The notes beneath the pieces were generated by a model. It saw nothing but the letters and a program-made list of their open reading frames with translations. It ran no database searches and was not told the origin of the DNA. From an uncultured bacterium (GTDB lineage Bacteria > Muiribacteriota > UBA9980), in assembly GCA_964551445.1 (NCBI GenBank), contig CAZKCG010000014.1:38689-102688 (forward strand): a DNA stretch of 64,000 bases. Reading direction: 5' to 3'. Below, in pieces: positions 4,028 to 37,100 of the stretch; within the stretch, counting starts at the first letter, position 1; each line of letters starts with the position of its first letter. The position numbers and the translations under genes were made by a program.

Positions 4028-4402
4028 TTATGGCCGGGTTATATATTTCTCCAGCTCGAAACTTTTCTTTTCTTCGGTGGCTAAAAACATTCCATTTTTA
4101 TTTGAAAATACCGAACCGGAAGCCGAGCCGGAACCGCCGCAGAAAACGATCAGCGGAGTATCCGCGCTCAGCTTTCTTAGTTCGATCGCCACTTCAAAAC
4201 CAGTAACGGCCCTCATGAACATTTCAATGTAAACAGCATCGAATTTATGTCGTTCCAGAAGCCCGGCGGCTTTTTCCAGAGAGTCGGTTATCACCGCCGA
4301 ACAGCCATTCTCATAAAGAAATCCGTTTATTTTTAACGCCTTTTTTTCATCATCTTCTATCAAAAGCACCAGATGCATATTATTCAGCTTACCTTCCCTC
4401 AT
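4028..4402 (-). CDS. Stand-alone CheY-like receiver domain protein, degenerate (Glu at the phospho-acceptor position)
   Basis: beta1 is LVLLIEDDE (acidic pair conserved). The beta3 segment FDAVYIEMF has Glu where D57 is expected, and the T87 and K109 equivalents are not conserved. It overlaps the cheA stop by 14 nt (alternative start ATG at 4378). Confidence 0.6.
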   Translation of the reverse strand: MREGKLNNMHLVLLIEDDEKKALKINGFLYENGCSAVITDSLEKAAGLLERHKFDAVYIEMFMRAVTGFEVAIELRKLSADTPLIVFCGGSGSASGSVFSNKNGMFLATEEKKSFELEKYITRP

Positions 4403-6863
4403 ATCTTGAAATATCGAAGGTTTTTATTTCCTCTGTCTGCAGAGCTATTTTGAATTTATCCGCCTCACTCGAACTCACGAATAAAATTTTAAAATACATT
4501 TCAAAATTACCTTTATCGATCTCTTCCATCGTGGGTATGGTTTTAACGACGTCGCCATATTCTTTGAGGCTTTTGAAGAGCATGAAAGCATTGACCATTT
4601 TCATCGGAAGGTCAGGGACGAATTCGACAAGTATCGAATAAAGTTTCATCTCCTGAGCTATCTTTTCCGAGATCACGAGATTTTCATAAGCGGTTATCTG
4701 AAATTTTTCTGTTTTAACGTCGATCACTCTGACAAGTTTTTTTTCGGGAGTATCTTCCTTGAATTTCAAAACGCGCTCTTTAACAGCGGCATTCGAAACA
4801 ACCGGCTTAACTCCGTTCGCGATGGATTTCATACATTCTTCGAAAAATTTCAAAACATCGAATAAAAGATCTACCCGTTCTTCGTCGATAAACTCTAATC
4901 CGCTTCTCACCTTATCAAGCATGGTTTCGAGTTCGTGGGCTATCTCGGACATATTTTTAATTCCAAGCATGGCAGTTGAGCTTTTTATTGTGTGGACCGC
5001 CCGGAATATTTCTTTGACCGCTTCAGCATCTTCAGCGTTTTTTTCAAGATTTAAAATAGATTGCGTCATCATTGACAGGTTCTTTTGCGTATCAAGCGCG
5101 AAAGTTTCATAATCCTCCAAAAGTTCGACCTCATAAAATATGTTTTCTTCAGAACCGGCGGCATGCCCGACATCCTCTTTAACCGTTATACCTACCGCCC
5201 TTATTTGCTTTTCATCGATATTTAATTTCCCGGCTATATCTTTTGGCAAAATATTTGAAATCACGAAAAATTTGATACTCATATCGAAATTTTCAGGTGA
5301 AAAATCTATTATATTATCCGCTATTTGTGCGGTCATTGGAACTACAAAAAGGATATCGCCGCAGGTTTTTATTTTTTGATAAATATCAAACCGAGATTTT
5401 TCAGCTTTGATGATATCTTTTTCAAGCATGAGATCGATCTCATAAACCGGTTCATTATTATTGAAAGCATCGAGCAGTTTTCCCTGTGAATTAAGGGCGA
5501 TCTCGAGCATTACAGCCGGATCTATGTTTGAATCTATCTCGATCTTATATTTTTTAAGAGAATTTTCTTTTTGTTTGACGGACTGCTTTTTTGCTTGAAG
5601 CCCTGTATCTTCAGGATTAACACTCGATACAGCAGCGGTTTTCGAAGCATTTTCACGGCCCATGGCAAGATTTATTATTTCGGAAGCGTCGATTATAAGC
5701 CCGACCGTATCGCCGCTTAAAAGCGTCGTGCCCGAGATTCCCCGTATGTTGCTGAAACAGTCATCGAGCATTTTTATCACTATTTTTTGAGGCGGAAGGA
5801 AGCGATCGACGCATATCCCTATTACATCATCGCGTTCCATCACCACGACAATATTTTTGACTGTTTTTGGAGACGTTCCCGCCATCCTTCTGTATAATAA
5901 AGCGGTCAGATCGTATACCGTAAGAGTGCTTCCTCTGAACATTATAGTGCACTGACCCGAAACTGACCGAAGGTCCGCTTCGCTGACCGAAAGCGTCGCG
6001 ACCACGGTGGAAATAGGTATGGCGTATATCGATCCGGCGACATCTATCATAAGCGCGTCGGTTATATTTACGGCCGAAATAATGGGGATCTTGAATGTAA
6101 ACCGTGTTCCTTCATGTAGTTTCGAACTTATACTGATAACGCCGTTAAGTTTTTCCACGCTGGTCTTGACCACGTCCATGCCTACGCCGCGCCCTGAAAC
6201 TTCGGAAACGGTCTCACGCGTCGAAAAACCGGGAAGCAAAATAAATTCATATTTTTCCTCCCTCGTCATTTTCTCGAGTTTTTCAGGCGTCGTAAGCTCA
6301 CGATCGAGCGCTTTGGCGCAGACTTTTTCGAGGTCGATACCGCTGCCGTCGTCTTCGACTTCGACATATATAAAGCGGTCTTTTTTATAGGCGTTTATTG
6401 AAACACGGCCTTCGGCCGGCTTATTATTGGCCTGACGCGCTTCGGACGATTCGATGCCGTGATCGACCGAGTTTCTGATAACGTGAATAAGCGCGCCTGA
6501 CAGTTCCTCTATTATTGTTTTATCCACCAAAGTCTCATTTCCCGAAGCCATGAATTTAACAGGTTTCCCCTGTGTCTTCGAAAGATCGCGCACGAGTCGC
6601 TGAAGCGTGATCATCGTTTCCTTGAACTCGACCTGCCTTATGTCCATTACGTTTTTATGAAGATGGTTGGCGGTCTGGCGCGAGGTCATAGAGATCTGTT
6701 TTATAAGGTTGAACGTGGTTTTATCCAGTGGTTTTTGACCGGCGAATATCTCGTCAGCCGCTTTTTCGAGAATGGCAAGCCGCGTTCCGGTTATTATGAC
6801 CTCGCCGGTCTGGTCAAGCAATTTATTAAGATAAGACATCTTTACCTGGATAGTTTCTTCCAT
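4389..6863 (-). CDS. cheA: Chemotaxis histidine kinase CheA with permuted domain order (P3-P4-P5-X-P1(HPt)-P2)
   Basis: N-terminus is the P3 dimerization segment (MSYLNKLLDQTGEVIITGTRLA). It has the HATPase N-box HVIRNSVDHGIE, G-boxes (DDGSGID, GRGVGMD, GTRFTFKIP) and a CheW-like P5. Then an HPt signature FRAVHTIKSSTAMLG sits near residue 640. The C-terminal segment MVNAFMLFKSLKEYGDVVKTIPTMEEIDKGNFEMYFKILF matches a CheY-binding P2 domain. RBS AAGGTG precedes the ATG, and there are in-frame stops upstream. Confidence 0.85.
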   Translation of the reverse strand: MEETIQVKMSYLNKLLDQTGEVIITGTRLAILEKAADEIFAGQKPLDKTTFNLIKQISMTSRQTANHLHKNVMDIRQVEFKETMITLQRLVRDLSKTQGKPVKFMASGNETLVDKTIIEELSGALIHVIRNSVDHGIESSEARQANNKPAEGRVSINAYKKDRFIYVEVEDDGSGIDLEKVCAKALDRELTTPEKLEKMTREEKYEFILLPGFSTRETVSEVSGRGVGMDVVKTSVEKLNGVISISSKLHEGTRFTFKIPIISAVNITDALMIDVAGSIYAIPISTVVATLSVSEADLRSVSGQCTIMFRGSTLTVYDLTALLYRRMAGTSPKTVKNIVVVMERDDVIGICVDRFLPPQKIVIKMLDDCFSNIRGISGTTLLSGDTVGLIIDASEIINLAMGRENASKTAAVSSVNPEDTGLQAKKQSVKQKENSLKKYKIEIDSNIDPAVMLEIALNSQGKLLDAFNNNEPVYEIDLMLEKDIIKAEKSRFDIYQKIKTCGDILFVVPMTAQIADNIIDFSPENFDMSIKFFVISNILPKDIAGKLNIDEKQIRAVGITVKEDVGHAAGSEENIFYEVELLEDYETFALDTQKNLSMMTQSILNLEKNAEDAEAVKEIFRAVHTIKSSTAMLGIKNMSEIAHELETMLDKVRSGLEFIDEERVDLLFDVLKFFEECMKSIANGVKPVVSNAAVKERVLKFKEDTPEKKLVRVIDVKTEKFQITAYENLVISEKIAQEMKLYSILVEFVPDLPMKMVNAFMLFKSLKEYGDVVKTIPTMEEIDKGNFEMYFKILFVSSSEADKFKIALQTEEIKTFDISRYEGR

Positions 6864-6963
6864 AACGCACCTTCATTTACAAACTTTTTTATCGTGTCCT
6901 TAAAGACTGCTGTAAATATCTTGTTTTCGATATTTACAGCAATCTTCAAAGTTTTTCTCAATA

Positions 6964-9255
6964 TTACGCGTTTAGTGTTAACGATGTTTTGCGGTTTTTA
7001 CCTTCAAGGGCATACAACTCATGTTTGGGTTGTTTTGAAGTTTTCACCTTCGTCGACACCACTGCGGTGGCGCTTCTAACCGCGGCCGATTTTTTAACGC
7101 TTATCTGGAATGTTTCGATAAGGCTTCTAAGCGATTCGGCCGAAGACGAAAGTTCTTCAGCCGAAGAGGCCAGTTCTTCCGACGAACTCGCGTTTTGTTC
7201 CGTAATAGCAGCCACATTTTCAATAGCTCTTGAAACTTCGTTAGCCGTAGCGCCCTGTTCTTCGGTAGCCGCGGATATCTGTTCGATCGCCCCGGCGGTC
7301 TTTTCGACGCTCAAAAGTATCTTTTTAAGGGCTTCGCCGGCCTGTTCGGAAAGCTTCGAGCCGTCGGTTACTTTCTGCGTCGATTCCTTGATAAGACTTT
7401 TTATTTCTTTCGCTGCTGATGAAGATCTTTCAGCGAGTTTTCGCACTTCGTCCGCGACGACCGCAAACCCCATGCCGTGTTCACCCGCGCGCGCAGCTTC
7501 GATAGCGGCATTCAAAGCGAGAAGGTTTGTCTGGTCTGCTATTTCGCTTATTACTCCGATGATCTCAGCTATCTGTTCGGACGACTGACTGATCTGTTTC
7601 ATCGCTTCGATGGAGTTATTTACCGCCACTTCGCCTTCGCCGGCTTCTTTTTTTGTATTTTCGGCGAGCTGGTTCGTATTTCCAGCCGATCCGGCGATAT
7701 CGTTCGTCGATTTAGTAAGTTCGCCAATGGATGCCGATATTTCCTCGACCGTCGAAGCCTGGCTCTGAGCGCCTTGTGAAACGCTCTGAGCGTTAGACGA
7801 CATTTCGCCCGATACGGCGGAGACCTGCTCTGTCGCTTCGAATACCTGCGAGAAGGCGATGTCAAGATTTTCGATGACCTTGTTGATGTTGGTCTTCATC
7901 ACATTATAAGCGCCCTGATAGCTGCCCGTCATTCTGACCGTGAGGTTCTTATCCGCGGCCTGTTCCAGCACCGTTCCGCCGTCATTGATGATAAGTAGAT
8001 TGAGCGTGTCGATGCAGGTATTGAGGTTATTCTTAAGTTCGTTGAAATCGCCGTTGTATTTATCCGTGATTCTGGCGGGCACATCGCCTTTGGATATTCG
8101 GTCAACGTATTCAGCGGCCACGTTCAAAGGTCCGATAACCGCGTCAAGCGTATTATTAACGCCTTCGACGATCTTTTTGAAGTCGCCCTGATGCTTCAAA
8201 GCGTCCGCACGGGTTGCAAGTTTGCCTTCAACGGCGGCTTTTGAAAGCATTCCCGCATCGGCCACGAGAAAGTTAACAGCATCGATGCACTGATTGAGGT
8301 TGTTCTTAATCTCGTTGAAATCGCCGTTATATGTATCAGTTATCTTAGCGGGTATATCGCCTTTGGATATTCGGTCAACATATTCCGCGGCTACATTCAG
8401 CGGCCTGATAACTGCATCGAGTGTTTTATTAACGCCTTCGACGACACCCCTGAATTCAAAATTTATTTTATTAAGATCACCGCGAACGTCAAGGTTGCCA
8501 CCTACGGCGGCTTCAGTGAGTTTTTGGACTTCATCGATGAGTCCGTCAACGATATTTTTGACGTTAAGAGTTAAAAACCATCCTACGATGATCGCCAGTA
8601 ACATTCCAAAACCGAGTGCAAAGAACATCATGGTTTTGGCGGCCGCGTAATCATCGTCGACTTTTTTAGACATCTCAGCGACCTCTTGAGCATTAATACT
8701 GGATATTTCACTCAGCATTTTGTCGATATCGACATCGAACTTCTCACATTTAATAGAAGCGTTAAATGCTTTATCGTCGAGTTCAACAACGCGGGTATCT
8801 TCGAGCTTAACACCTGATGCTATTAATTTACTCTTTTCTTTAGACAGAGATACGATTCCCTCGATGCCTTTTTTCCATTCATTCCAATCAGGAACAAATG
8901 TGTCCCACACCTTCTTTTCGCTTCCGACATGCGGAAGCAGTTCGTATACCTTCCATGAGGCGTCGGCTGTTTTGAATGTGTTTTCAATGCCATCAATCAT
9001 CGAATTTATCATCGCGGAATCAGTCGTCATTCTCGGGTTGATCAGGCCACGAACGCCGACCACGATGTTTGCCTGGGCCACCTGAAGTTCGAGTATGGAT
9101 TTAACGCTTGGAACGTTATCATCGGTAATTACATCCGTCGATTTCATTATATTAACCATGCCGGTATATCCGGCATAGCAAACAAATGAAGCTATGGCTA
9201 CCAAAAAAATGAAAGCCGTGATCACCTTGTTTCCCAGTTTCATGTTTGAAAACAT
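6964..9255 (-). CDS. Methyl-accepting chemotaxis protein with a periplasmic sensor domain and tandem HAMP-like repeats
   Basis: N-terminal TM, a sensor domain, a second TM, a duplicated [14 protein letters not shown][IV]PA[KR]ITD.YNGDFNE.KNNLN segment, and the MCP signalling domain (…[37 protein letters not shown]…). Confidence 0.9.
8009..8445. repeat. Intragenic tandem duplication (two ~164-bp copies, period ~272 bp, ~85-90% identity) inside the MCP gene
   Basis: 8009-8172 and 8281-8445 align base by base. The plus-strand ORFs 7940..8191 and 8294..8650 translate to near-identical peptides. Confidence 0.8.
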
Positions 9256-9349: not shown

Positions 9350-10228
9350 TCATTGTTTAACTTTTTTAAAAGGATGCTCAAAACTAATATAGAAGAAAAC
9401 GCCTCGCTCGCCTTTACTCGGCCCGACCCCTATAGGAAAAGCAATTCCAGGAACTATTTGAAGCCCGTTCTTATAATTTATCGCCCAGCGCACTCCGGGA
9501 CTTACATAAAAACTTCTGGATTTCGTTGTCACGCCCGGGCCGGAAACGCTTTCTGACTGCGTCCATGCCGCTTCCAGCATCAGGTTAAAGTCCGGCTTCA
9601 TAAGGAAAATGAAACTCTGACCGAGGTTGAGATCTTGCGTGCGCGCTGTATTATCGAAAGCGTCTTTCGCGCTCGAAGTAACGGTAATTCCGGCATTGGT
9701 ATGCGACACCCATTTTTTAGAAAGCCTGACGCTTAACGGAAGATTGATCTGAACCCCGGGGCCGCCCCTGCCAAGCCCTCTTTTATAATCGCCTGTAGGT
9801 AGAACAAGTGAAAGTCTTGGCGAAAAAGCGTGTTTTTTATTTAAAACGGCCTGATAACGGTAATTCAGTAAAGTGTCTCCGGAACCGCCGTGCACTTCGG
9901 GACCTGAAGTTACGCGCAATCGCTGCAGGGTATAGCTCAACTGGTGTTTTTCGGTCGATGCCGGCCATTCCTGAGTGAAAGAATAAAGCCAGTCGTTCGT
10001 TTTCGTATTGCGCGAGAATGTGTTTATATGCTGGACCACACCCGGTTCCTGATTATAAGCTTCTTCGATCAAAAAACTGTTGTCGGAAATTATTTCTTCC
10101 TCTTCTATTTTAATTTCTTCGTTTTTTGCCGTTGATCGATCGTCAAGACTTTTTTGAGCATAAGCATGACAAAATGTATACAAGACAATCAAAACGGCCA
10201 AAATGCAACGCATTATTACTTTTATCAT
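9350..10228 (-). CDS. Exported protein with a signal peptide, possibly an outer-membrane beta-barrel; function unknown
   Basis: N-terminal signal peptide (MIKVIMRCILAVLIVLYTFCHAYA). The protein is rich in G/S/T/Y/N with alternating hydrophobic residues typical of beta-strands. RBS AAGGTG. It sits between the MCP and cheW genes on the same strand. Confidence 0.5.
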   Translation of the reverse strand: MIKVIMRCILAVLIVLYTFCHAYAQKSLDDRSTAKNEEIKIEEEEIISDNSFLIEEAYNQEPGVVQHINTFSRNTKTNDWLYSFTQEWPASTEKHQLSYTLQRLRVTSGPEVHGGSGDTLLNYRYQAVLNKKHAFSPRLSLVLPTGDYKRGLGRGGPGVQINLPLSVRLSKKWVSHTNAGITVTSSAKDAFDNTARTQDLNLGQSFIFLMKPDFNLMLEAAWTQSESVSGPGVTTKSRSFYVSPGVRWAINYKNGLQIVPGIAFPIGVGPSKGERGVFFYISFEHPFKKVKQ

Positions 10229-10381: not shown

Positions 10382-10858
10382 TCACGCCGCTCCATGTTGT
10401 ATCAGCGAATGTTCTTCGGATGAAAGTATTTTATCGATCTCGAGCAATATCAAAAGCCTTTTGTCGAGTTTTCCGATGCCCTTGATGTATTCTCTTCCGA
10501 TATTTGATATTACCTGCGGCGGCGGTTCGATCTGATCATCTGAAAGCCTTAAAACTTCAGATACGCCGTCAACGATTATTCCCATTACGCGGTCTAAAAC
10601 CGATACCACGACTATCCTTGATTCGTTGGTTTTTTCAGTGATCAAAAGGTTAAAGCGCTTTCTGAGATCGACTATCGGAATGACGTTTCCGCGAAGATTG
10701 ATAACGCCTTCGATAAAATCAGGCATTTGCGGAACTTTCGTTATTTCCTGCATTCTGATGATCTCCTGGACCTTCATGATGCTGATGCCGAATTCCTCGG
10801 AACCGATCCTGAAACTGACGAGCTGCTGGTTTTTCAAACCCTTTTTGTCCTCAAACAT
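10382..10858 (-). CDS. cheW: Chemotaxis coupling protein CheW
   Basis: Canonical CheW domain (…FRIGSEEFGISIMKVQEI…VINLRGNVIPIVDLRKRF…). RBS AAGGAG. Confidence 0.9.
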   Translation of the reverse strand: MFEDKKGLKNQQLVSFRIGSEEFGISIMKVQEIIRMQEITKVPQMPDFIEGVINLRGNVIPIVDLRKRFNLLITEKTNESRIVVVSVLDRVMGIIVDGVSEVLRLSDDQIEPPPQVISNIGREYIKGIGKLDKRLLILLEIDKILSSEEHSLIQHGAA

Positions 10859-10883: not shown

Positions 10884-11366
10884 TTAAAGTGAAAATATTT
10901 TTTCTATATCAAGAATATTTTTGACTTTGCCGTTGACCCGGCACGACGCTTTAATAAAATCGCCGCCGGATCCGGCAGCCGCAGACACAACTTTTTCAGA
11001 TCCATTGATATCGATATCTTCAATTTCAATTACAGGATCTACGATAAGCGCCCTTTGCGTTTGGCTGATGTTAATTATTATGGCTGTTTGATCTTTCACT
11101 TCGGGAAGATTTAATTTTTTTCTCAGGCTGACGGCTGGGATGAACCTGCATTTGTGTTCTATGAAAAGATTCGTTCCAGCGGTTTCCCCCGGAACAAAAA
11201 GCGTCTTTACGGCTTCGATGATCGCTGCAATTGAGCTTATTTCTATGGCGTATTCATCGCCGTATAAATTTAAAACAAAATATTTATTGCGTTGTGAATT
11301 CTCAAATTCATCGTTAAATTCGTTCTGTAATATAGATATGTTTTTATCAGTAGTTTTCATTAACAT
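10884..11366 (-). CDS. Second CheW-like coupling protein
   Basis: CheW fold signature (…YFVLNLYGDEYAIEISSIAAIIEA…ALIVDPVIEIEDI…). RBS AAGGAG. First gene of the minus-strand che cluster. Confidence 0.8.
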   Translation of the reverse strand: MLMKTTDKNISILQNEFNDEFENSQRNKYFVLNLYGDEYAIEISSIAAIIEAVKTLFVPGETAGTNLFIEHKCRFIPAVSLRKKLNLPEVKDQTAIIINISQTQRALIVDPVIEIEDIDINGSEKVVSAAAGSGGDFIKASCRVNGKVKNILDIEKIFSL

Positions 11367-12339: not shown

Positions 12340-14748
12340 TCAAGTCAAATTATATTTTTTCATCTTTCTCCACAGTGTTGTACGGCCAATATTCAGCATT
12401 TTCGCGGCGGCGGCATTGTCGTTCCCGGATCTTTCAAGCGCGCTTATGATCGTTGAGATCTCTGTGAGTTCAGACACCATTCGCAGCTGCTGTACGTCCT
12501 CGGCAACCTTAGCCCCGACGGACGCGAGCTTTCTGTATTCGGCCGGAAGGTCATTTAGAGATATAACATCGCCGGCGCAGGTAACAAAAGCCGATTCGAT
12601 AATATTTTGAAGTTCCCTGACATTTCCCGGAAACTCGTAATTTTGAAAAAAAGCGCGGATTTTGGCGCAGACGTCTTTTATCGATTTTGAATACTTCCGG
12701 TTAAGCTTCTCGATCAAATTACTGACCATAAACATTATATCTTCGGATCTTTCACAAAGAGGCAAAATTTTTATACCGATGATCTTCAGACGATAATAAA
12801 GATCTTCCCTGAACATGCCGTCTTTTATCCGTTCGGCTATATTCCTGTTAGTAGCCGCTATAACCCTTACATCGGCCTCGATCGTCTTACCCGAGCCCAG
12901 CGGCTCATATTTTTTTTCTTCAATAACTCTTAAAAGTTTTACCTGAAGATTGTATGGCATTTCGCTTATTTCGTCCAGAAAAATCGTGCCGCGATCGGCA
13001 AGCGTGAACCTGCCGGGTTTATTAGTTTTTGCGTCGGTGAACGCGCCTTTGACGTAGCCGAAAAGTTCGGATTCGATAAGCCCTTCTGGTATGGCGCCGC
13101 AGTTAACGACTATAAAAGGACCGTCTTTTCTCGCCGAAAGTTCATGTATTGTTTTCGCTATAAGACTTTTGCCGGTTCCGGAGGAACCTTCGATGAATAC
13201 GTTACAATCGATTCCAGCCGCGGTTTCGATCAGCCTGAAAGTTTCCTTCATAGAAGGGCTTATGCCTATAATATCATGAAATTTCCACTGCATGCCTTCG
13301 CGTGAAAGGCTATCAAGTTCCTGTTTCAGTTTAATGTTTTCAGTCAGATCGGTTATCAGGGTAAAATAACCGGTTATTTTACCTTCAAGATCGAATAACA
13401 TCGAAGTGACTCTGTTCACGACAATTATCTTTCCTTCTTTGTGCTTTAATTTGAGTTCGCCTCTAACCCGCTCGCCGCGTTTGAGCTTTTCAATACTTGC
13501 GGCACGCTCTTGCTGATCGATATGAACGAAAAAGTCGGTGGCGTCTTTTCCAATGACCTCGTCTGACGCAAGTCCAAGCATTTCAAGTATGCGTCTGTTG
13601 GCGAAGGCTATTTTTCCGTTCAGATCAAAAACAACGTAGCCTTCGCTTAAATTGTCAATTATATCCTTATATGTCTTTTTCCTCAATAAAAGTTCTTTGT
13701 TTTGTATCTGCTTTTCTGCGAGCAAGACCTTGTTTTCTTCCGCTGCCCTTTTATGCTCGATAATATGTCCCAGACGGTCAGCGATGGCATCTATCAATAA
13801 CCGCTCTTCCTTCATGAACGGTCCTTCATCAAGCTCCATTCGCTCTTCAATATAACATATATCGATCTTTCCGGCTGATTCGCCATTAACTTTGAAGGGT
13901 GCTGATTGTTTCCATGCGGTCTCAATGAAGTTTTTCGAACGGAATTCATCTTCACCGACGAATATTCGGGCACAGGCTATCTCCGGATAAAACCAGCTTT
14001 GTGGAAGGATTTCCGCAAGTTGCTGATATATTTCGTCCAGTGTGATGCCTTTCCGGGAGGTTATCTCGGTCAAATTATAAAATGCCTGCAGTTCTTTCTG
14101 CACGCGGTGTAATTGCTCGTTTTGCTTTTCGAGTTCGATCTTATTCACGCACAACTCGTAAATCAATTTATTTGATAGTTCCGCAAGCTTATGATTTGAT
14201 CGCGCCTCGGCACCCTTGATCTTTTCTTCCGTCAATCTTCTCAGTTCAGAGGCTTCGTCATGATCATTTTGATCATTTATCGCGGTCCCGGCCATCTTAC
14301 GGCTTGACTTCAACAAATCTTCCACCCATTTGCTCTCATATAATTCTTTTTTTATGTTCTCGTGCGCGTCAAACAGCTCAAAAGCCATCTCAATGGACGA
14401 ACGCAGGACAAAAACGCCGGAGTTCTTGACGACGTATCCATAGCGGGTAACTTTTTTTATTTTTTCAGCGTATTCCTTTTCGGTATGCGCGGTCATAAAA
14501 ATGATGGGAACATGACGTTTTTCAAGTATCCGCCGCGCGGCTTCGGTGCCATCGATACCGCTGCCGAGATCGATGTCCATGAGAATGAGATCTATCTTTT
14601 CATCGCCAAGCGCTATTTCACAAGCGGCCTCACCGGTATTAGCGATGAGCGCGCCCAAGCCAAAACTTTTCAAGATCTTAGCCGTGACCCGTGCGGAAAT
14701 TTCTTCGTCTTCAACGAGAAGGATGATTTTTGGTTCCTGTGCGCTCAT
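12340..14748 (-). CDS. Sigma54-dependent response regulator (NtrC-family enhancer-binding protein) with receiver, GAF/PAS and AAA+ domains
   Basis: N-terminal receiver (ILLVEDEE…LILMDIDLG). PAS segment (IIDNLSEGYVVFDLNGKIAF). Sigma54-interaction domain with Walker A GSSGTGKS and GAFTDA…ESELFGY. C-terminal Fis-type HTH (AAAKMLNIGRTTLWRKMKKY). Confidence 0.9.
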   Translation of the reverse strand: MSAQEPKIILLVEDEEISARVTAKILKSFGLGALIANTGEAACEIALGDEKIDLILMDIDLGSGIDGTEAARRILEKRHVPIIFMTAHTEKEYAEKIKKVTRYGYVVKNSGVFVLRSSIEMAFELFDAHENIKKELYESKWVEDLLKSSRKMAGTAINDQNDHDEASELRRLTEEKIKGAEARSNHKLAELSNKLIYELCVNKIELEKQNEQLHRVQKELQAFYNLTEITSRKGITLDEIYQQLAEILPQSWFYPEIACARIFVGEDEFRSKNFIETAWKQSAPFKVNGESAGKIDICYIEERMELDEGPFMKEERLLIDAIADRLGHIIEHKRAAEENKVLLAEKQIQNKELLLRKKTYKDIIDNLSEGYVVFDLNGKIAFANRRILEMLGLASDEVIGKDATDFFVHIDQQERAASIEKLKRGERVRGELKLKHKEGKIIVVNRVTSMLFDLEGKITGYFTLITDLTENIKLKQELDSLSREGMQWKFHDIIGISPSMKETFRLIETAAGIDCNVFIEGSSGTGKSLIAKTIHELSARKDGPFIVVNCGAIPEGLIESELFGYVKGAFTDAKTNKPGRFTLADRGTIFLDEISEMPYNLQVKLLRVIEEKKYEPLGSGKTIEADVRVIAATNRNIAERIKDGMFREDLYYRLKIIGIKILPLCERSEDIMFMVSNLIEKLNRKYSKSIKDVCAKIRAFFQNYEFPGNVRELQNIIESAFVTCAGDVISLNDLPAEYRKLASVGAKVAEDVQQLRMVSELTEISTIISALERSGNDNAAAAKMLNIGRTTLWRKMKKYNLT

Positions 14749-34113: not shown

Positions 34114-37100
34114 TTAAAGTTTCCCGCGCTTGGCCGGCCTCGCCGCGAGACCCGCCAGAATGAATATTATTCCCATGGAAAAACCCGCGAACAGATAGTT
34201 CATGCTGTTTTCATTATATTGAAAAATGGCCAGGCAATATATCAAAGAGATCGCCGCGAAGATCACGGCGCGCCTGTATCTTTTAGTTTTAAATATCGCC
34301 ATAACGGCCCAGACCGCTAAAATCACGCCCATGATATACCCGCCGAAAGCTAAAATTTCAAAGACCTTGTTCGAATAAAAGGAAAACTCGATGAAATAAA
34401 GCGGCGCGTTCTCAAAGCCGTCCGATTTTTTCAGATTTTCACCGCTTAAGTGAAGCGCGTTCGTCGCGAGTTCGGGAAACTCCGTCGAAACAGGCAAAAA
34501 GCCTTTTGCGTCGCCGCCGAATCGCATAAGCGGCGCCGGAAACCCTTGTGAAACTACGCCCTGATCCGATCCGGGTCCGGGCGAATTACCCGAAAGATAT
34601 GCCGCCTTCAATTTCTGCTGGACGGCTATCATCTCATCGACCGAAAGCGGCTTTCCGGACCCGGCGTCCATGAATTCGACTGCGCCCGCCGAAGCTGAAA
34701 GTCTTAAATTACTACTTATACCGGATAGCTGATAGCTGTCCATAAAATAAAACTCCCAGCTTATTCGCGAACACATAACGTCTATACGCGGGAGCTCGAA
34801 CTTCGCGGCGCCGAAATTTTCAAATTCAGCCGTTTTGGTCAGATAAACCAGTTCCACCATAAATGATCTGAATTCGTTATCCATAAGCGGCGATTTTAAA
34901 AGCGGTATGAAAACCGAGCCTTCCTCGTTTCTCGCCGGCTTAACAAGCCTTTCCCCGACCTTAAGGCTCCATGTTTTAGAGTTCGCGGGCAGGCGCATCC
35001 TTAAAAACTGAACGTTGTTATTTCTTACCTGATAACGCGCGCGCGTCAGAATATACCCGGCTTTCGTGACGAAGCTCTTATAGTCGGCCGAATCTATCAC
35101 GCACGGAATGGACGGCAGATCGGTATTTTTATTTATCGCAAGCGTCAGAGAGCATGGAAATTTCGATGTTTTGTATGAAAAAAGAACCGGCGAAAGCGCG
35201 CTTCTTTTTAAACCGCCGGGAATTTCCCGCTCGTCTATCGGCGTGAGATCGACCGTTTTAGTAACGCTGATATCGGCGTTTACCGATGAATCCAGCGCTA
35301 TATATAATTTTTTTTCATCCGCGTTCCGGGGCATCACCCACGGCGCGTTCACTTCTTTTTTCATGTCAGCTATCTGGCGCTCATAATCTATGGCAACGCT
35401 TAACTGCCCTTTCTGAGGCGCCCTGAATGTTACGGTTAAAATTTTGCCGCTTTTTTCGCTGAGCTTATCGCCTGGCTTATCGCCTGGCTTATCGCCTGGC
35501 TTATCGCCTGGCTTATCGCCGAGCTTATCGCCGGCCGCGGCCGTGATCTTCCAATCGTATATTTCAGCGGATGAATTCACCCGCGTTATAAGCGTTTCAG
35601 GCTGGATATCAAACTGCAGTTCGCGCAGCATAGTGTTTTCTATGTTATAATTATTCGTAATAACGGATGAAAAGCGTTCTTCTTCTACCGTCAATATCTG
35701 CGTTGAACTCACGCTGACGCGGGGTTCGCTTTTCGGAACCATCGTTCTGACCTCTTCCGATCTCGCGGCCTCTTCACGCGCTACTCTCATGCGTTTCTCG
35801 CGCTCACGCTGTTTCTTGTATTTTTCGTTGCGGATCTTCTCCTGAAGCGTTAACCGGAAGCGGTAGAAGCCGGCCGGAACGAGATTCGCGGAAGTTAAGA
35901 CCTCCGCCGTCCCGTCATCCGATCTCTGCGTTCGTATTATAAGGCCTGACGCGCTAATATCATATCCGGCGGGCGATCTTAATTCCATCATCATAAGCGG
36001 GCACTTCCCGGGCGAGAGATCGAAATAACGGTCGTCTTTATCGGATGCCAGGTCGGTCTTTAACGATACTTTGACCCGATATTCGCCGCGTCCTTCGAAA
36101 ACGGCCGAGTAGTTATCTTTAAAAGGCAATATCCTAACGGTTCCGCTTGCCCGGCCGTCATCATTCGAAGTTTTAGCGAAAGGTTTTATCAGGCTGGATT
36201 CCACCGTCGTTAAAGCGACGTTTCCAGAAAACAGCTGGACACGGGTATAATCGTCGTCGAAAATATCGATGAAATATTCGATATCTATATCCGCATGGCC
36301 GGCTGTAACGACAGCCGATATCAGCATTTTCTTTACGAGGTCCTTATACGGCAGGCTTTCACATTCCGCCGTGCCTTCAGGCAGTTTCAGGCTCACGCCG
36401 CCTTTTTCAACAGCACTTACCGAATCGAGTAAAAATTTCAGGTTGGCGTATTTTATAAAAACTCCGGATGATCTCTTTTTTAAAATATATCTGTTAAGAT
36501 CGCTCAGTTGAAAGAGCTGGACGTCGAGGGTCGCCGGATTATAAACGAGCTCTATCGCTCCCGGCGCGTCCGGTTTAAATTCGCCCGCCAAAGCCCCGGA
36601 GGGAATAGCGCATAACGCTGAAACGGTTATCGCCGCATATATAAACATCGCAAGCGTCGTTTCAGAAGCTGACGCGCGCGTGTTATCCGTTCCGGCCTTT
36701 CCGGCGGGCGCTCCGGATTCAAATAGTATCTTTATAAAGGTCCGATATATTCCGGGATCGGAAACGATCGATATAAGCTTCAGCGTAAAAAAAAATATCA
36801 CGCCGCAAAGCAAGCCTATCTGAGGATATTTTGCGATTTGCGGAATATATGCGTTCACGGTTTCCATAATTATAATTATTAAAAGCGCCGCGAGGATCAT
36901 CAAAACGGATCGCGGGCTGAAATCGAACGCGCCGCCTAGAAAATATGGCAGAACCAATCCCGATATCACAAGAACCGCCGATAATAACATATACGATCCG
37001 GATGTCATATATGAAATATTGATGAAAATATCCTGGTCCGGCATCACGAATTTTTTGTTCAGCAAATAGAACGTATTCGTCTTGACGAGATTGACTGGAA

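Follow-up and report, generated by a model that had tools for sequence, protein, structure and literature searches.

A CheA-family protein with its Hpt and P2 domains placed C-terminal to the P3-P4-P5 core, and its conserved relatives

A 64,000-nucleotide (nt) stretch of DNA from an uncultured bacterium of the Muiribacteriota (contig CAZKCG010000014.1, positions 38,689 to 102,688; hereafter the window) carries a cheA-like gene whose 824-amino-acid (aa) product is, on its sequence, likely a genuine and probably active CheA-family kinase, in which the P1-P2 block has been relocated from the N-terminal to the C-terminal side of the kinase core and an extra P2-like domain lies between P5 and P1. 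Specifically, the domains follow the order P3-P4-P5-linker-P2-like-linker-Hpt/P1-P2, whereas canonical CheA reads P1-P2-P3-P4-P5; P1, tethered to the N-terminus of P3 in the canonical protein, is here tethered to the C-terminus of P5. An earlier note on this DNA, made from the letters alone, had proposed P3-P4-P5 followed at the far end by Hpt-P2, and Pfam together with a PDB search puts every domain where it was claimed to be. The gene and its parts are the following:

4389..6863, minus strand: permuted cheA open reading frame (ORF), 824 aa, with the ATG at 6863-6861 and the stop codon at 4391-4389
6868..6874, minus strand: ribosome-binding site GAAGGTG, 4 nt 5' of the ATG, overlapping an in-frame TGA at 6875-6873
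6624..6863, minus strand: P3 dimerisation hairpin, aa 1-80, aligning to 1B3Q from residue 3, with AlphaFold2 (AF2) helices at 9-41 and 48-76
6069..6623, minus strand: P4 HATPase_c kinase domain, aa 81-265 (Pfam, PDB alignment, N/G1/F/G2 boxes)
5664..6068, minus strand: P5 CheW-like domain, aa 266-400 (Pfam, PDB alignment)
5553..5663, minus strand: linker 1, aa 401-437, predicted disordered, with a predicted local distance difference test score (pLDDT) below 50 for 406-437
5175..5552, minus strand: extra P2-like alpha/beta domain, aa 438-563 (Pfam, hhalign, AF2, Foldseek), present only in the branch termed below the Wallbacteria type
5130..5174, minus strand: linker 2, aa 564-578, predicted disordered (AF2 model)
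4755..5129, minus strand: P1/Hpt five-helix domain, aa 579-703 (Pfam, PDB, AF2), with the His624 codon at 4992-4994
4653..4754, minus strand: Hpt-P2 connector, aa 704-737, of almost constant length in the clade
4392..4652, minus strand: C-terminal P2 CheY-docking domain, aa 738-824 (Pfam P2, 71.5 bits; hhalign against canonical P2, 99.3%)

The coordinates first given for the gene hold, with the minus strand as the reading strand, on which the ORF encodes an uninterrupted 824-aa protein; a plus-strand reading of 4389-6863 was rejected, since its translation contains many stops. The in-frame TGA lies 4 codons 5' of the ATG and the upstream gene, for a methyl-accepting chemotaxis protein (MCP), stops at 6964, 100 nt from the cheA start, and therefore no N-terminal Hpt is possible in frame. 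The good ribosome-binding site, the upstream stop and the lack of an upstream Hpt that had been described from the letters are thus all confirmed, and the ORF does begin directly with P3, as indicated by the alignment to 1B3Q and by the two long AF2 helices.

The kinase core is recognisable over its whole length: in PDB sequence searches residues 3-396 align with the P3P4P5 structure of T. maritima CheA (1B3Q, expect value (E) 2e-66), and the core also aligns with residues 263-646 of E. coli CheA (6S1K). Pfam matches HATPase_c at residues 124-261 (60.9 bits) and CheW at residues 270-398 (60.4 bits), and the four kinase boxes are present (N, HVIRNSVDHG; G1, DDGSG; F, PGFST; G2, GRGVGMDVV). Further along the protein, Pfam matches Hpt at residues 593-666 (46.8 bits) and P2 at residues 742-819 (71.5 bits), while residues 580-708 align with the CheA P1 structures 2LD6, 1TQG and 1I5N (E 1e-12 to 1e-13 for 2LD6 and 1TQG). 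The Hpt motif FRAVHTIKSSTAMLG lies at 620-634, with FRAVH624TIK and HELE646 both present and His624 on helix B of the five-helix bundle modelled by AF2, and the motif LKEYGDVVKTIPTMEEIDKGNFEMYFKILF is located in the C-terminal P2; the HATPase boxes, CheW-like P5, C-terminal Hpt site and P2 read earlier from the letters are all recovered by Pfam and motif inspection. The protein thus contains everything that defines a CheA by composition, but no Hpt(-P2) precedes P3 as in the canonical order. Because it is not colinear with canonical CheA, its scores against the NCBIfam CheA equivalogs fall far under the cut-offs (334.9 against 950 bits for NF041336 and 243.7 against 793 bits for NF007835), with the core alone aligning; NCBIfam TorS matches weakly on the Hpt region.

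The region between P5 and the Hpt domain had been described as about 230 unassigned residues. A stretch of this kind does follow P5, but it measures about 180 aa (401-578) and holds a P2-like domain. Specifically, Pfam P2 weakly matches residues ~466-543 (E 0.03); an hhalign comparison of a profile of 17 Wallbacteria-type middle regions with the canonical P2 profile gives 85.8% probability and E 5e-6 over 85 columns; AF2 models 438-563 as an alpha/beta domain, with pLDDT of about 88-92 in the full-length model and, when modelled alone, pLDDT 80 and a predicted template-modelling score (pTM) of 0.72; and the stand-alone model has its best Foldseek match in the PDB with 1U0S_A, the P2 domain of T. 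maritima CheA (probability 0.98, E 0.011, template-modelling score 0.53 on the target). The fold evidence is modest and the four lines are concordant, identifying the predicted domain at 438-563 as a divergent additional P2-like domain (P2'). Because the middle region is such a domain, the true order is P3-P4-P5-P2'-P1-P2. In the full-length AF2 model the confident domains are split by segments with pLDDT below 50 (406-437, 564-580 and 704-712). Taken as a unit, P2'-Hpt-P2 gives a colinear alignment with the inner block of CheAs of the form Hpt-P2-Hpt-P2 (P0139 and the neighbour of the permuted gene at locus L087).

The permuted order recurs in many other proteins. Besides the window protein itself, the homologue search yielded 16 full-length colinear homologues (P0002-P0017; 59-83% identity, 818-834 aa), all with 100% coverage save for one partial 742-aa sequence (89%) and P0015 (99%); they are drawn from NCBI, JGI, ENA and Logan assemblies, and several carry the name Candidatus Wallbacteria. 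When the core, Hpt and P2 segments are mapped onto the top 120 matches, the order core, Hpt, P2 is found in about 88 of them, with canonical CheAs beginning near rank 83, and the permuted order is present in 155 of the 342 fetched proteins. A second, short type comprises about 135 clusters of ~718 aa (~700-735 aa) with the same core-Hpt-P2 order, whose source names include Nitrospinota, Thermodesulfobacteriota/Deltaproteobacteria, Candidatus Adiutrix and Planctomycetota, and one of which comes from a complete genome (CP026657.1, "Deltaproteobacteria bacterium Smac51"). The search seeded with the short-type protein P0070 lists 120 clusters, all at 52-100% identity and most covering at least 97% of the query, the exceptions being a few truncated sequences and P0080/P0082, whose best alignment is broken in two by an inserted P5. 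The gap between P5 and Hpt has a median of 64 aa in the short type, and the Hpt-to-P2 spacing is near-constant (56-61 aa) across the clade, the window protein included. The order appears to be rare overall, as hinted by a genome scan with the permuted alignment, whose matches were taken up by generic CheA motifs: its 80 best loci contain neither permuted members nor Wallbacteria, all being canonical or without Hpt. A metagenome-contig scan found relatives only at about 66% identity, and a representative search with the C-terminal half returned mostly multi-Hpt proteins and canonical N-terminal Hpt-P2. Public annotation of the permuted proteins is inconsistent, the names in use being "CheW", "Hpt domain-containing protein", "ATP-binding protein" and "CheA".

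These homologues bear on whether the ORF could be an assembly or annotation artefact, one frame having been made from two genes (a split P3-P5 CheA and one for Hpt-P2) or from two pieces of contig. The window probably derives from a metagenome-assembled genome, and bipartite CheAs are known in which Hpt has its own gene (PMC10782961, cited here and below for the available part of its text), but the ORF is uninterrupted from end to end in the 16 related clusters from the four sources, about 135 short-type clusters, with a complete genome among them, share the order, and the spacing between Hpt and P2 is constant, so that an artefact is improbable to the point of being negligible. The mis-join that the earlier note had wished to exclude is thus cleared by the same colinear order in independent assemblies, and its search for homologues with the same permuted order is answered by both types.

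The permuted proteins probably form one clade with a single origin, as judged from their sequences. In neighbour-joining (NJ) trees of the P3-P4-P5 core, the Wallbacteria type, the short type and the two jointly are each monophyletic (100/100 with 196 sequences, 376 columns and 110 canonical CheAs as outgroup; 50/50 with 277 sequences, 367 columns and 191 canonical CheAs); the trees are distance-based, and the canonical sample was picked by similarity or pattern matches and is not class-balanced. The clade has two branches, namely the Wallbacteria type (about 825 aa, with P2') and the ~718-aa type. In 57 permuted sequences the invariant residues include H127/R130/N131/D134/H135/G136 of the N box, G173 of G1, most of the F box (211-215), G2 (224-232) and, in the Hpt domain, F620/R621/H624/K627/G634/H643/E646, while D171/D172 and G175 of G1 and F213 are at least 90% conserved. 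Moreover, position 69 of P3, in the motif LHxxVMDIR, is His in 86 of 86 permuted sequences, whereas canonical CheA usually has Gln there (161 of 191, with His in 9); the window protein carries His69 in LHKNVMDIR, near the P3-P4 junction (6630-6668, minus strand). Since His69 is a signature that agrees with the trees, it supports the clade. Fission followed by re-fusion in reversed order, or tandem duplication followed by trimming, are plausible candidate routes to the arrangement. Two derivations from the canonical cheA that neighbours the permuted gene in related genomes (see below) found no support: a recent duplication of it, as the core of the neighbour groups with canonical CheAs in the NJ tree, and an acquisition of the C-terminal block from it, as this block matches the short type at least as well as it matches the neighbour.

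Compared with known systems, the permuted protein shares with canonical CheA (E. coli; T. maritima 1B3Q, 1TQG and 1U0S) all five domain types, the catalytic motifs and the adjacency of MCP and CheW genes. In split CheAs (R. sphaeroides CheA3 with CheA4, and operons with a separate Hpt) the covalent link between P1 and P3 is broken, as in the permuted protein, and thus P1 need not be tethered N-terminally (PMC10782961); unlike these systems, which use separate polypeptides, the permuted CheA holds all domains in one. Similarly, CheA-receiver hybrids (such as H. pylori CheAY and those of the F3, F5, ACF and Tfp classes) carry a functional domain that a linker joins to the P5 C-terminus, which indicates that such attachments are compatible with CheA function (PMC10782961), although the hybrids append a receiver and the permuted CheA appends Hpt-P2 and lacks an N-terminal Hpt. 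The unorthodox hybrid kinases ArcB, BarA and TorS also have an Hpt C-terminal to the ATPase, but the permuted CheA shows neither an H-box of the HisKA type nor a receiver between the two domains. At E up to 1, Pfam returns neither a HisKA nor a Response_reg match in the 824 aa, and an identity as an ArcB/TorS-type hybrid kinase was rejected on this basis; the Hpt His is the sole candidate phosphorylation site, as in CheA. Lastly, CheAs with a duplicated P2 (Borreliales) or a duplicated Hpt-P2 likewise have a second P2-like domain, whereas in the permuted CheA the P2s flank P1 on both sides and the block follows P5.

The mechanism is most likely canonical CheA chemistry with the tether at the C-terminus of P5, and no new mechanism is suggested by the sequence. 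The P3 hairpin would dimerise the protein, and P5, together with the products of two CheW genes and the upstream MCP, would couple the kinase to the receptor; P4 would bind ATP and phosphorylate His624 on P1, and phosphorylated P1 would then hand its phosphoryl group to a receiver docked on P2. Because P1 is hung on predicted disordered linkers (32 aa, P2', 17 aa), it would be able to reach the active site. Kinase activity, phosphorylation in cis or in trans, the partner receiver and the pathway output are all properties that we infer. The linker-P2'-linker tether is comparable in length to the P1-linker-P2-linker-P3 connection of E. coli CheA. A C-terminal tether is also mechanistically plausible because P1 set free from the rest of the protein still serves P3-P5 as a functional substrate and P2 is dispensable (work cited in PMC10782961), and because about 35% of CheAs have a receiver, mostly C-terminal after P5, and bipartite CheAs exist (PMC10782961). 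The earlier note had expected the placement of the substrate His to constrain the geometry of cis or trans phosphotransfer in an unusual way. Such an effect is not evident, as the linkers that carry P1, predicted to be disordered, measure 32 and 17 residues around P2' in the window protein and about 64 in the short type; with the catalytic residues conserved, the linkers long and disordered, free P1 known to work and the tether mirroring the canonical connection, we see no strong geometric constraint on P1.

The genomic surroundings of the gene address the output of the kinase. In the window, a same-strand cluster comprises, in this order, a sigma54 activator, a doubtful 122-aa ORF, a divergent CheW, a CheW, a 292-aa protein, an MCP, the permuted CheA and a receiver-like gene, of which the following were delimited in addition to cheA:

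12340..14748, minus strand: REC-PAS-sigma54 AAA+-HTH activator, the first gene in the same-strand cluster
10884..11366, minus strand: second, divergent CheW-like gene (57.6 bits)
10382..10858, minus strand: CheW (151 bits)
9350..10228, minus strand: 292-aa protein with a signal peptide, possibly an outer-membrane beta-barrel (weak beta-barrel/DUF3187 Pfam matches)
6964..9255, minus strand: MCP with a 4HB_MCP_1 sensor, three HAMP_2 and MCPsignal (Pfam)
4028..4402, minus strand: 124-aa receiver-like gene, translationally coupled to cheA, whose stop it overlaps over 14 nt

The receiver-like product has Glu at the position of the phospho-Asp (YIEMFM against VISDWNMP in CheY) and lacks the conserved Thr and Lys, and for these reasons it is probably a pseudo-receiver that is not phosphorylatable. 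The 64-kb window yielded a single intact receiver, on the sigma54 activator, and no cheR, cheB, cheY, flagellar or other che genes occur among the large ORFs of the window. In M. xanthus, the NtrC-like CrdA is the target of Che3 signalling, and a pathway of the "alternative cellular function" kind, unrelated to motility and ending in sigma54-dependent transcription through the activator at 12340-14748, can be envisaged from these features: the only intact receiver heads the same-strand cluster, the receiver beside cheA has no phospho-Asp and the usual chemotaxis and flagellar partners do not appear. Such an output is a serious candidate but somewhat unlikely, as P2, a typical feature of CheAs that dock CheY, is well conserved (71.5 bits), the orthologous clusters described below have CheR, CheB, CheD, CheC/X and CheY, the activator and the first cheW stand about 1.0 kb apart (two gaps and the doubtful 122-aa ORF), and the evidence covers the 64-kb window out of the whole genome.

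Elsewhere the Wallbacteria-type gene lies in a different and conserved cluster. In the other members (80%, 66% and 59% identity), its 5' part consists of REC-SpoIIE, STAS, REC-HATPase_c_2 (anti-sigma kinase), STAS, CheW (not in L087), CheR and the permuted CheA, and its 3' part of a canonical long CheA, Hpt-REC, CheX, CheD, STAS, CheY, CheB and CheC/X; the REC-SpoIIE, STAS and REC-anti-sigma-kinase genes are of the partner-switching kind. The canonical CheA starts 7-10 nt after the permuted gene and has the form Hpt-P2-Hpt-P2-P3-P4-P5 (1034-1096 aa; L085, L087, L088 and L089), at these positions among others:

L085, 12500-15769: canonical long cheA
L087, 11491-14595: canonical long cheA
L088, 12500-15790: canonical long cheA

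The window CheW is 79-84% identical to the CheWs of L085, L086, L088 and L089, and the CheAs are 59-67% identical; the surrounding genes differ, with the outer-membrane-protein-like gene and the MCP in the window and CheR in the orthologous clusters. From this combination of identities and differing neighbours, the window seems to carry a rearranged form of the orthologous cluster, and a neighbourhood of the window type is known from one assembly. The short type belongs to a conserved module of three genes, the first of which encodes a CheY-like receiver of 129-162 aa and overlaps the start of cheA, with the permuted CheA and a double receiver of ~300 aa following; the module is seen in Nitrospinota, Deltaproteobacteria bacterium Smac51 and Planctomycetota (L001, L003/L004, L094, L095 and L096). 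None of six short-type loci, which represent five distinct contexts (L001 and L002 being one region that occurs in two assemblies), has an adjacent CheW, and an MCP is near cheA in one locus only, L096.

The tandem of a permuted and a canonical cheA raises the possibility of a two-CheA unit similar to R. sphaeroides CheA3/CheA4, in which P4 of the permuted protein would act on the Hpt of its partner or the partner would phosphorylate the Hpt studied here. A canonical long CheA does follow 7-10 nt downstream at every other Wallbacteria-type locus with an identifiable downstream gene, and the CheA3/CheA4 pair offers a precedent (PMC10782961). Nevertheless, no second cheA adjoins the window gene, the short type has no nearby partner CheA in the 6 loci, the core of the canonical neighbour is not closely related (NJ tree) and the permuted protein retains all kinase boxes and the His, and is therefore self-sufficient on paper, which together render pairing of this kind decidedly improbable, although cooperation with a second CheA at the related loci is a genuine possibility.

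Elsewhere in the window, the 859-aa ORF at 41512-44091 (plus strand) is major-vault-protein-like, with Pfam matches to MVP_shoulder (96.9 bits) and Vault_3 (37 bits), and the 1873-aa ORF at 34114-39735 (minus strand) has as its sole Pfam match a weak one to the type II secretion system (T2SS) pseudopilin G domain, at residues 754-834.

Several observations weigh against reading the protein as an active CheA with a relocated P1-P2 block. The Pfam H-kinase_dim match at residues 3-75 is sub-threshold (17.6 bits, with a cut-off of 23), the full-length AF2 model has a pTM of 0.39 and is uninformative on inter-domain geometry, and position 69 of P3 shows an invariant change from Gln to His. Moreover, as the adjacent receiver lacks the phospho-acceptor Asp, the window offers no evident cognate CheY, and the neighbourhood of the window gene is unlike that of every other examined Wallbacteria-type member. 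A bolder proposal would take the permuted proteins as a distinct and undescribed CheA class in which the relocation of P1-P2 may have rewired the kinase. There, autophosphorylation may have switched from trans to cis, or P1 may stand directly under the P5/CheW/receptor interface; the short-type REC-CheA-REC module, which has neither a receptor nor CheW beside it, may be a circuit gated by receivers and independent of receptors; and the invariant His69 of P3 would belong to the rewiring. This proposal as a whole is rather improbable, and the relocated block working by canonical chemistry is the reading retained here.

A full-text literature search, whose coverage stopped short of the 2010 class scheme, found no description of a CheA with C-terminal Hpt-P2, and an earlier mention is possible. 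A survey of CheA architectures in 13,673 sequences treats the presence, absence and duplication of domains, and its available text does not mention their order (PMC10782961); likewise, the available part of a study of CheW architectures distinguishes 12 major CheA architectures and mentions no C-terminal Hpt. The permuted protein is a real and conserved variant of a well-known kinase, apparently undescribed, and a candidate new CheA class, of a kind that surveys of domain composition overlook when variants differ only in order. The gain is moderate and the arrangement is not mechanistically shocking, because liberated P1 was already known to work. CheA is the model for the control of a kinase in large receptor arrays, where the access of tethered P1 to P4 (in cis or in trans, and with gating by the receptors) is debated, and a conserved clade with P1-P2 at the opposite end of the protein represents a natural experiment on the geometry of the tether.

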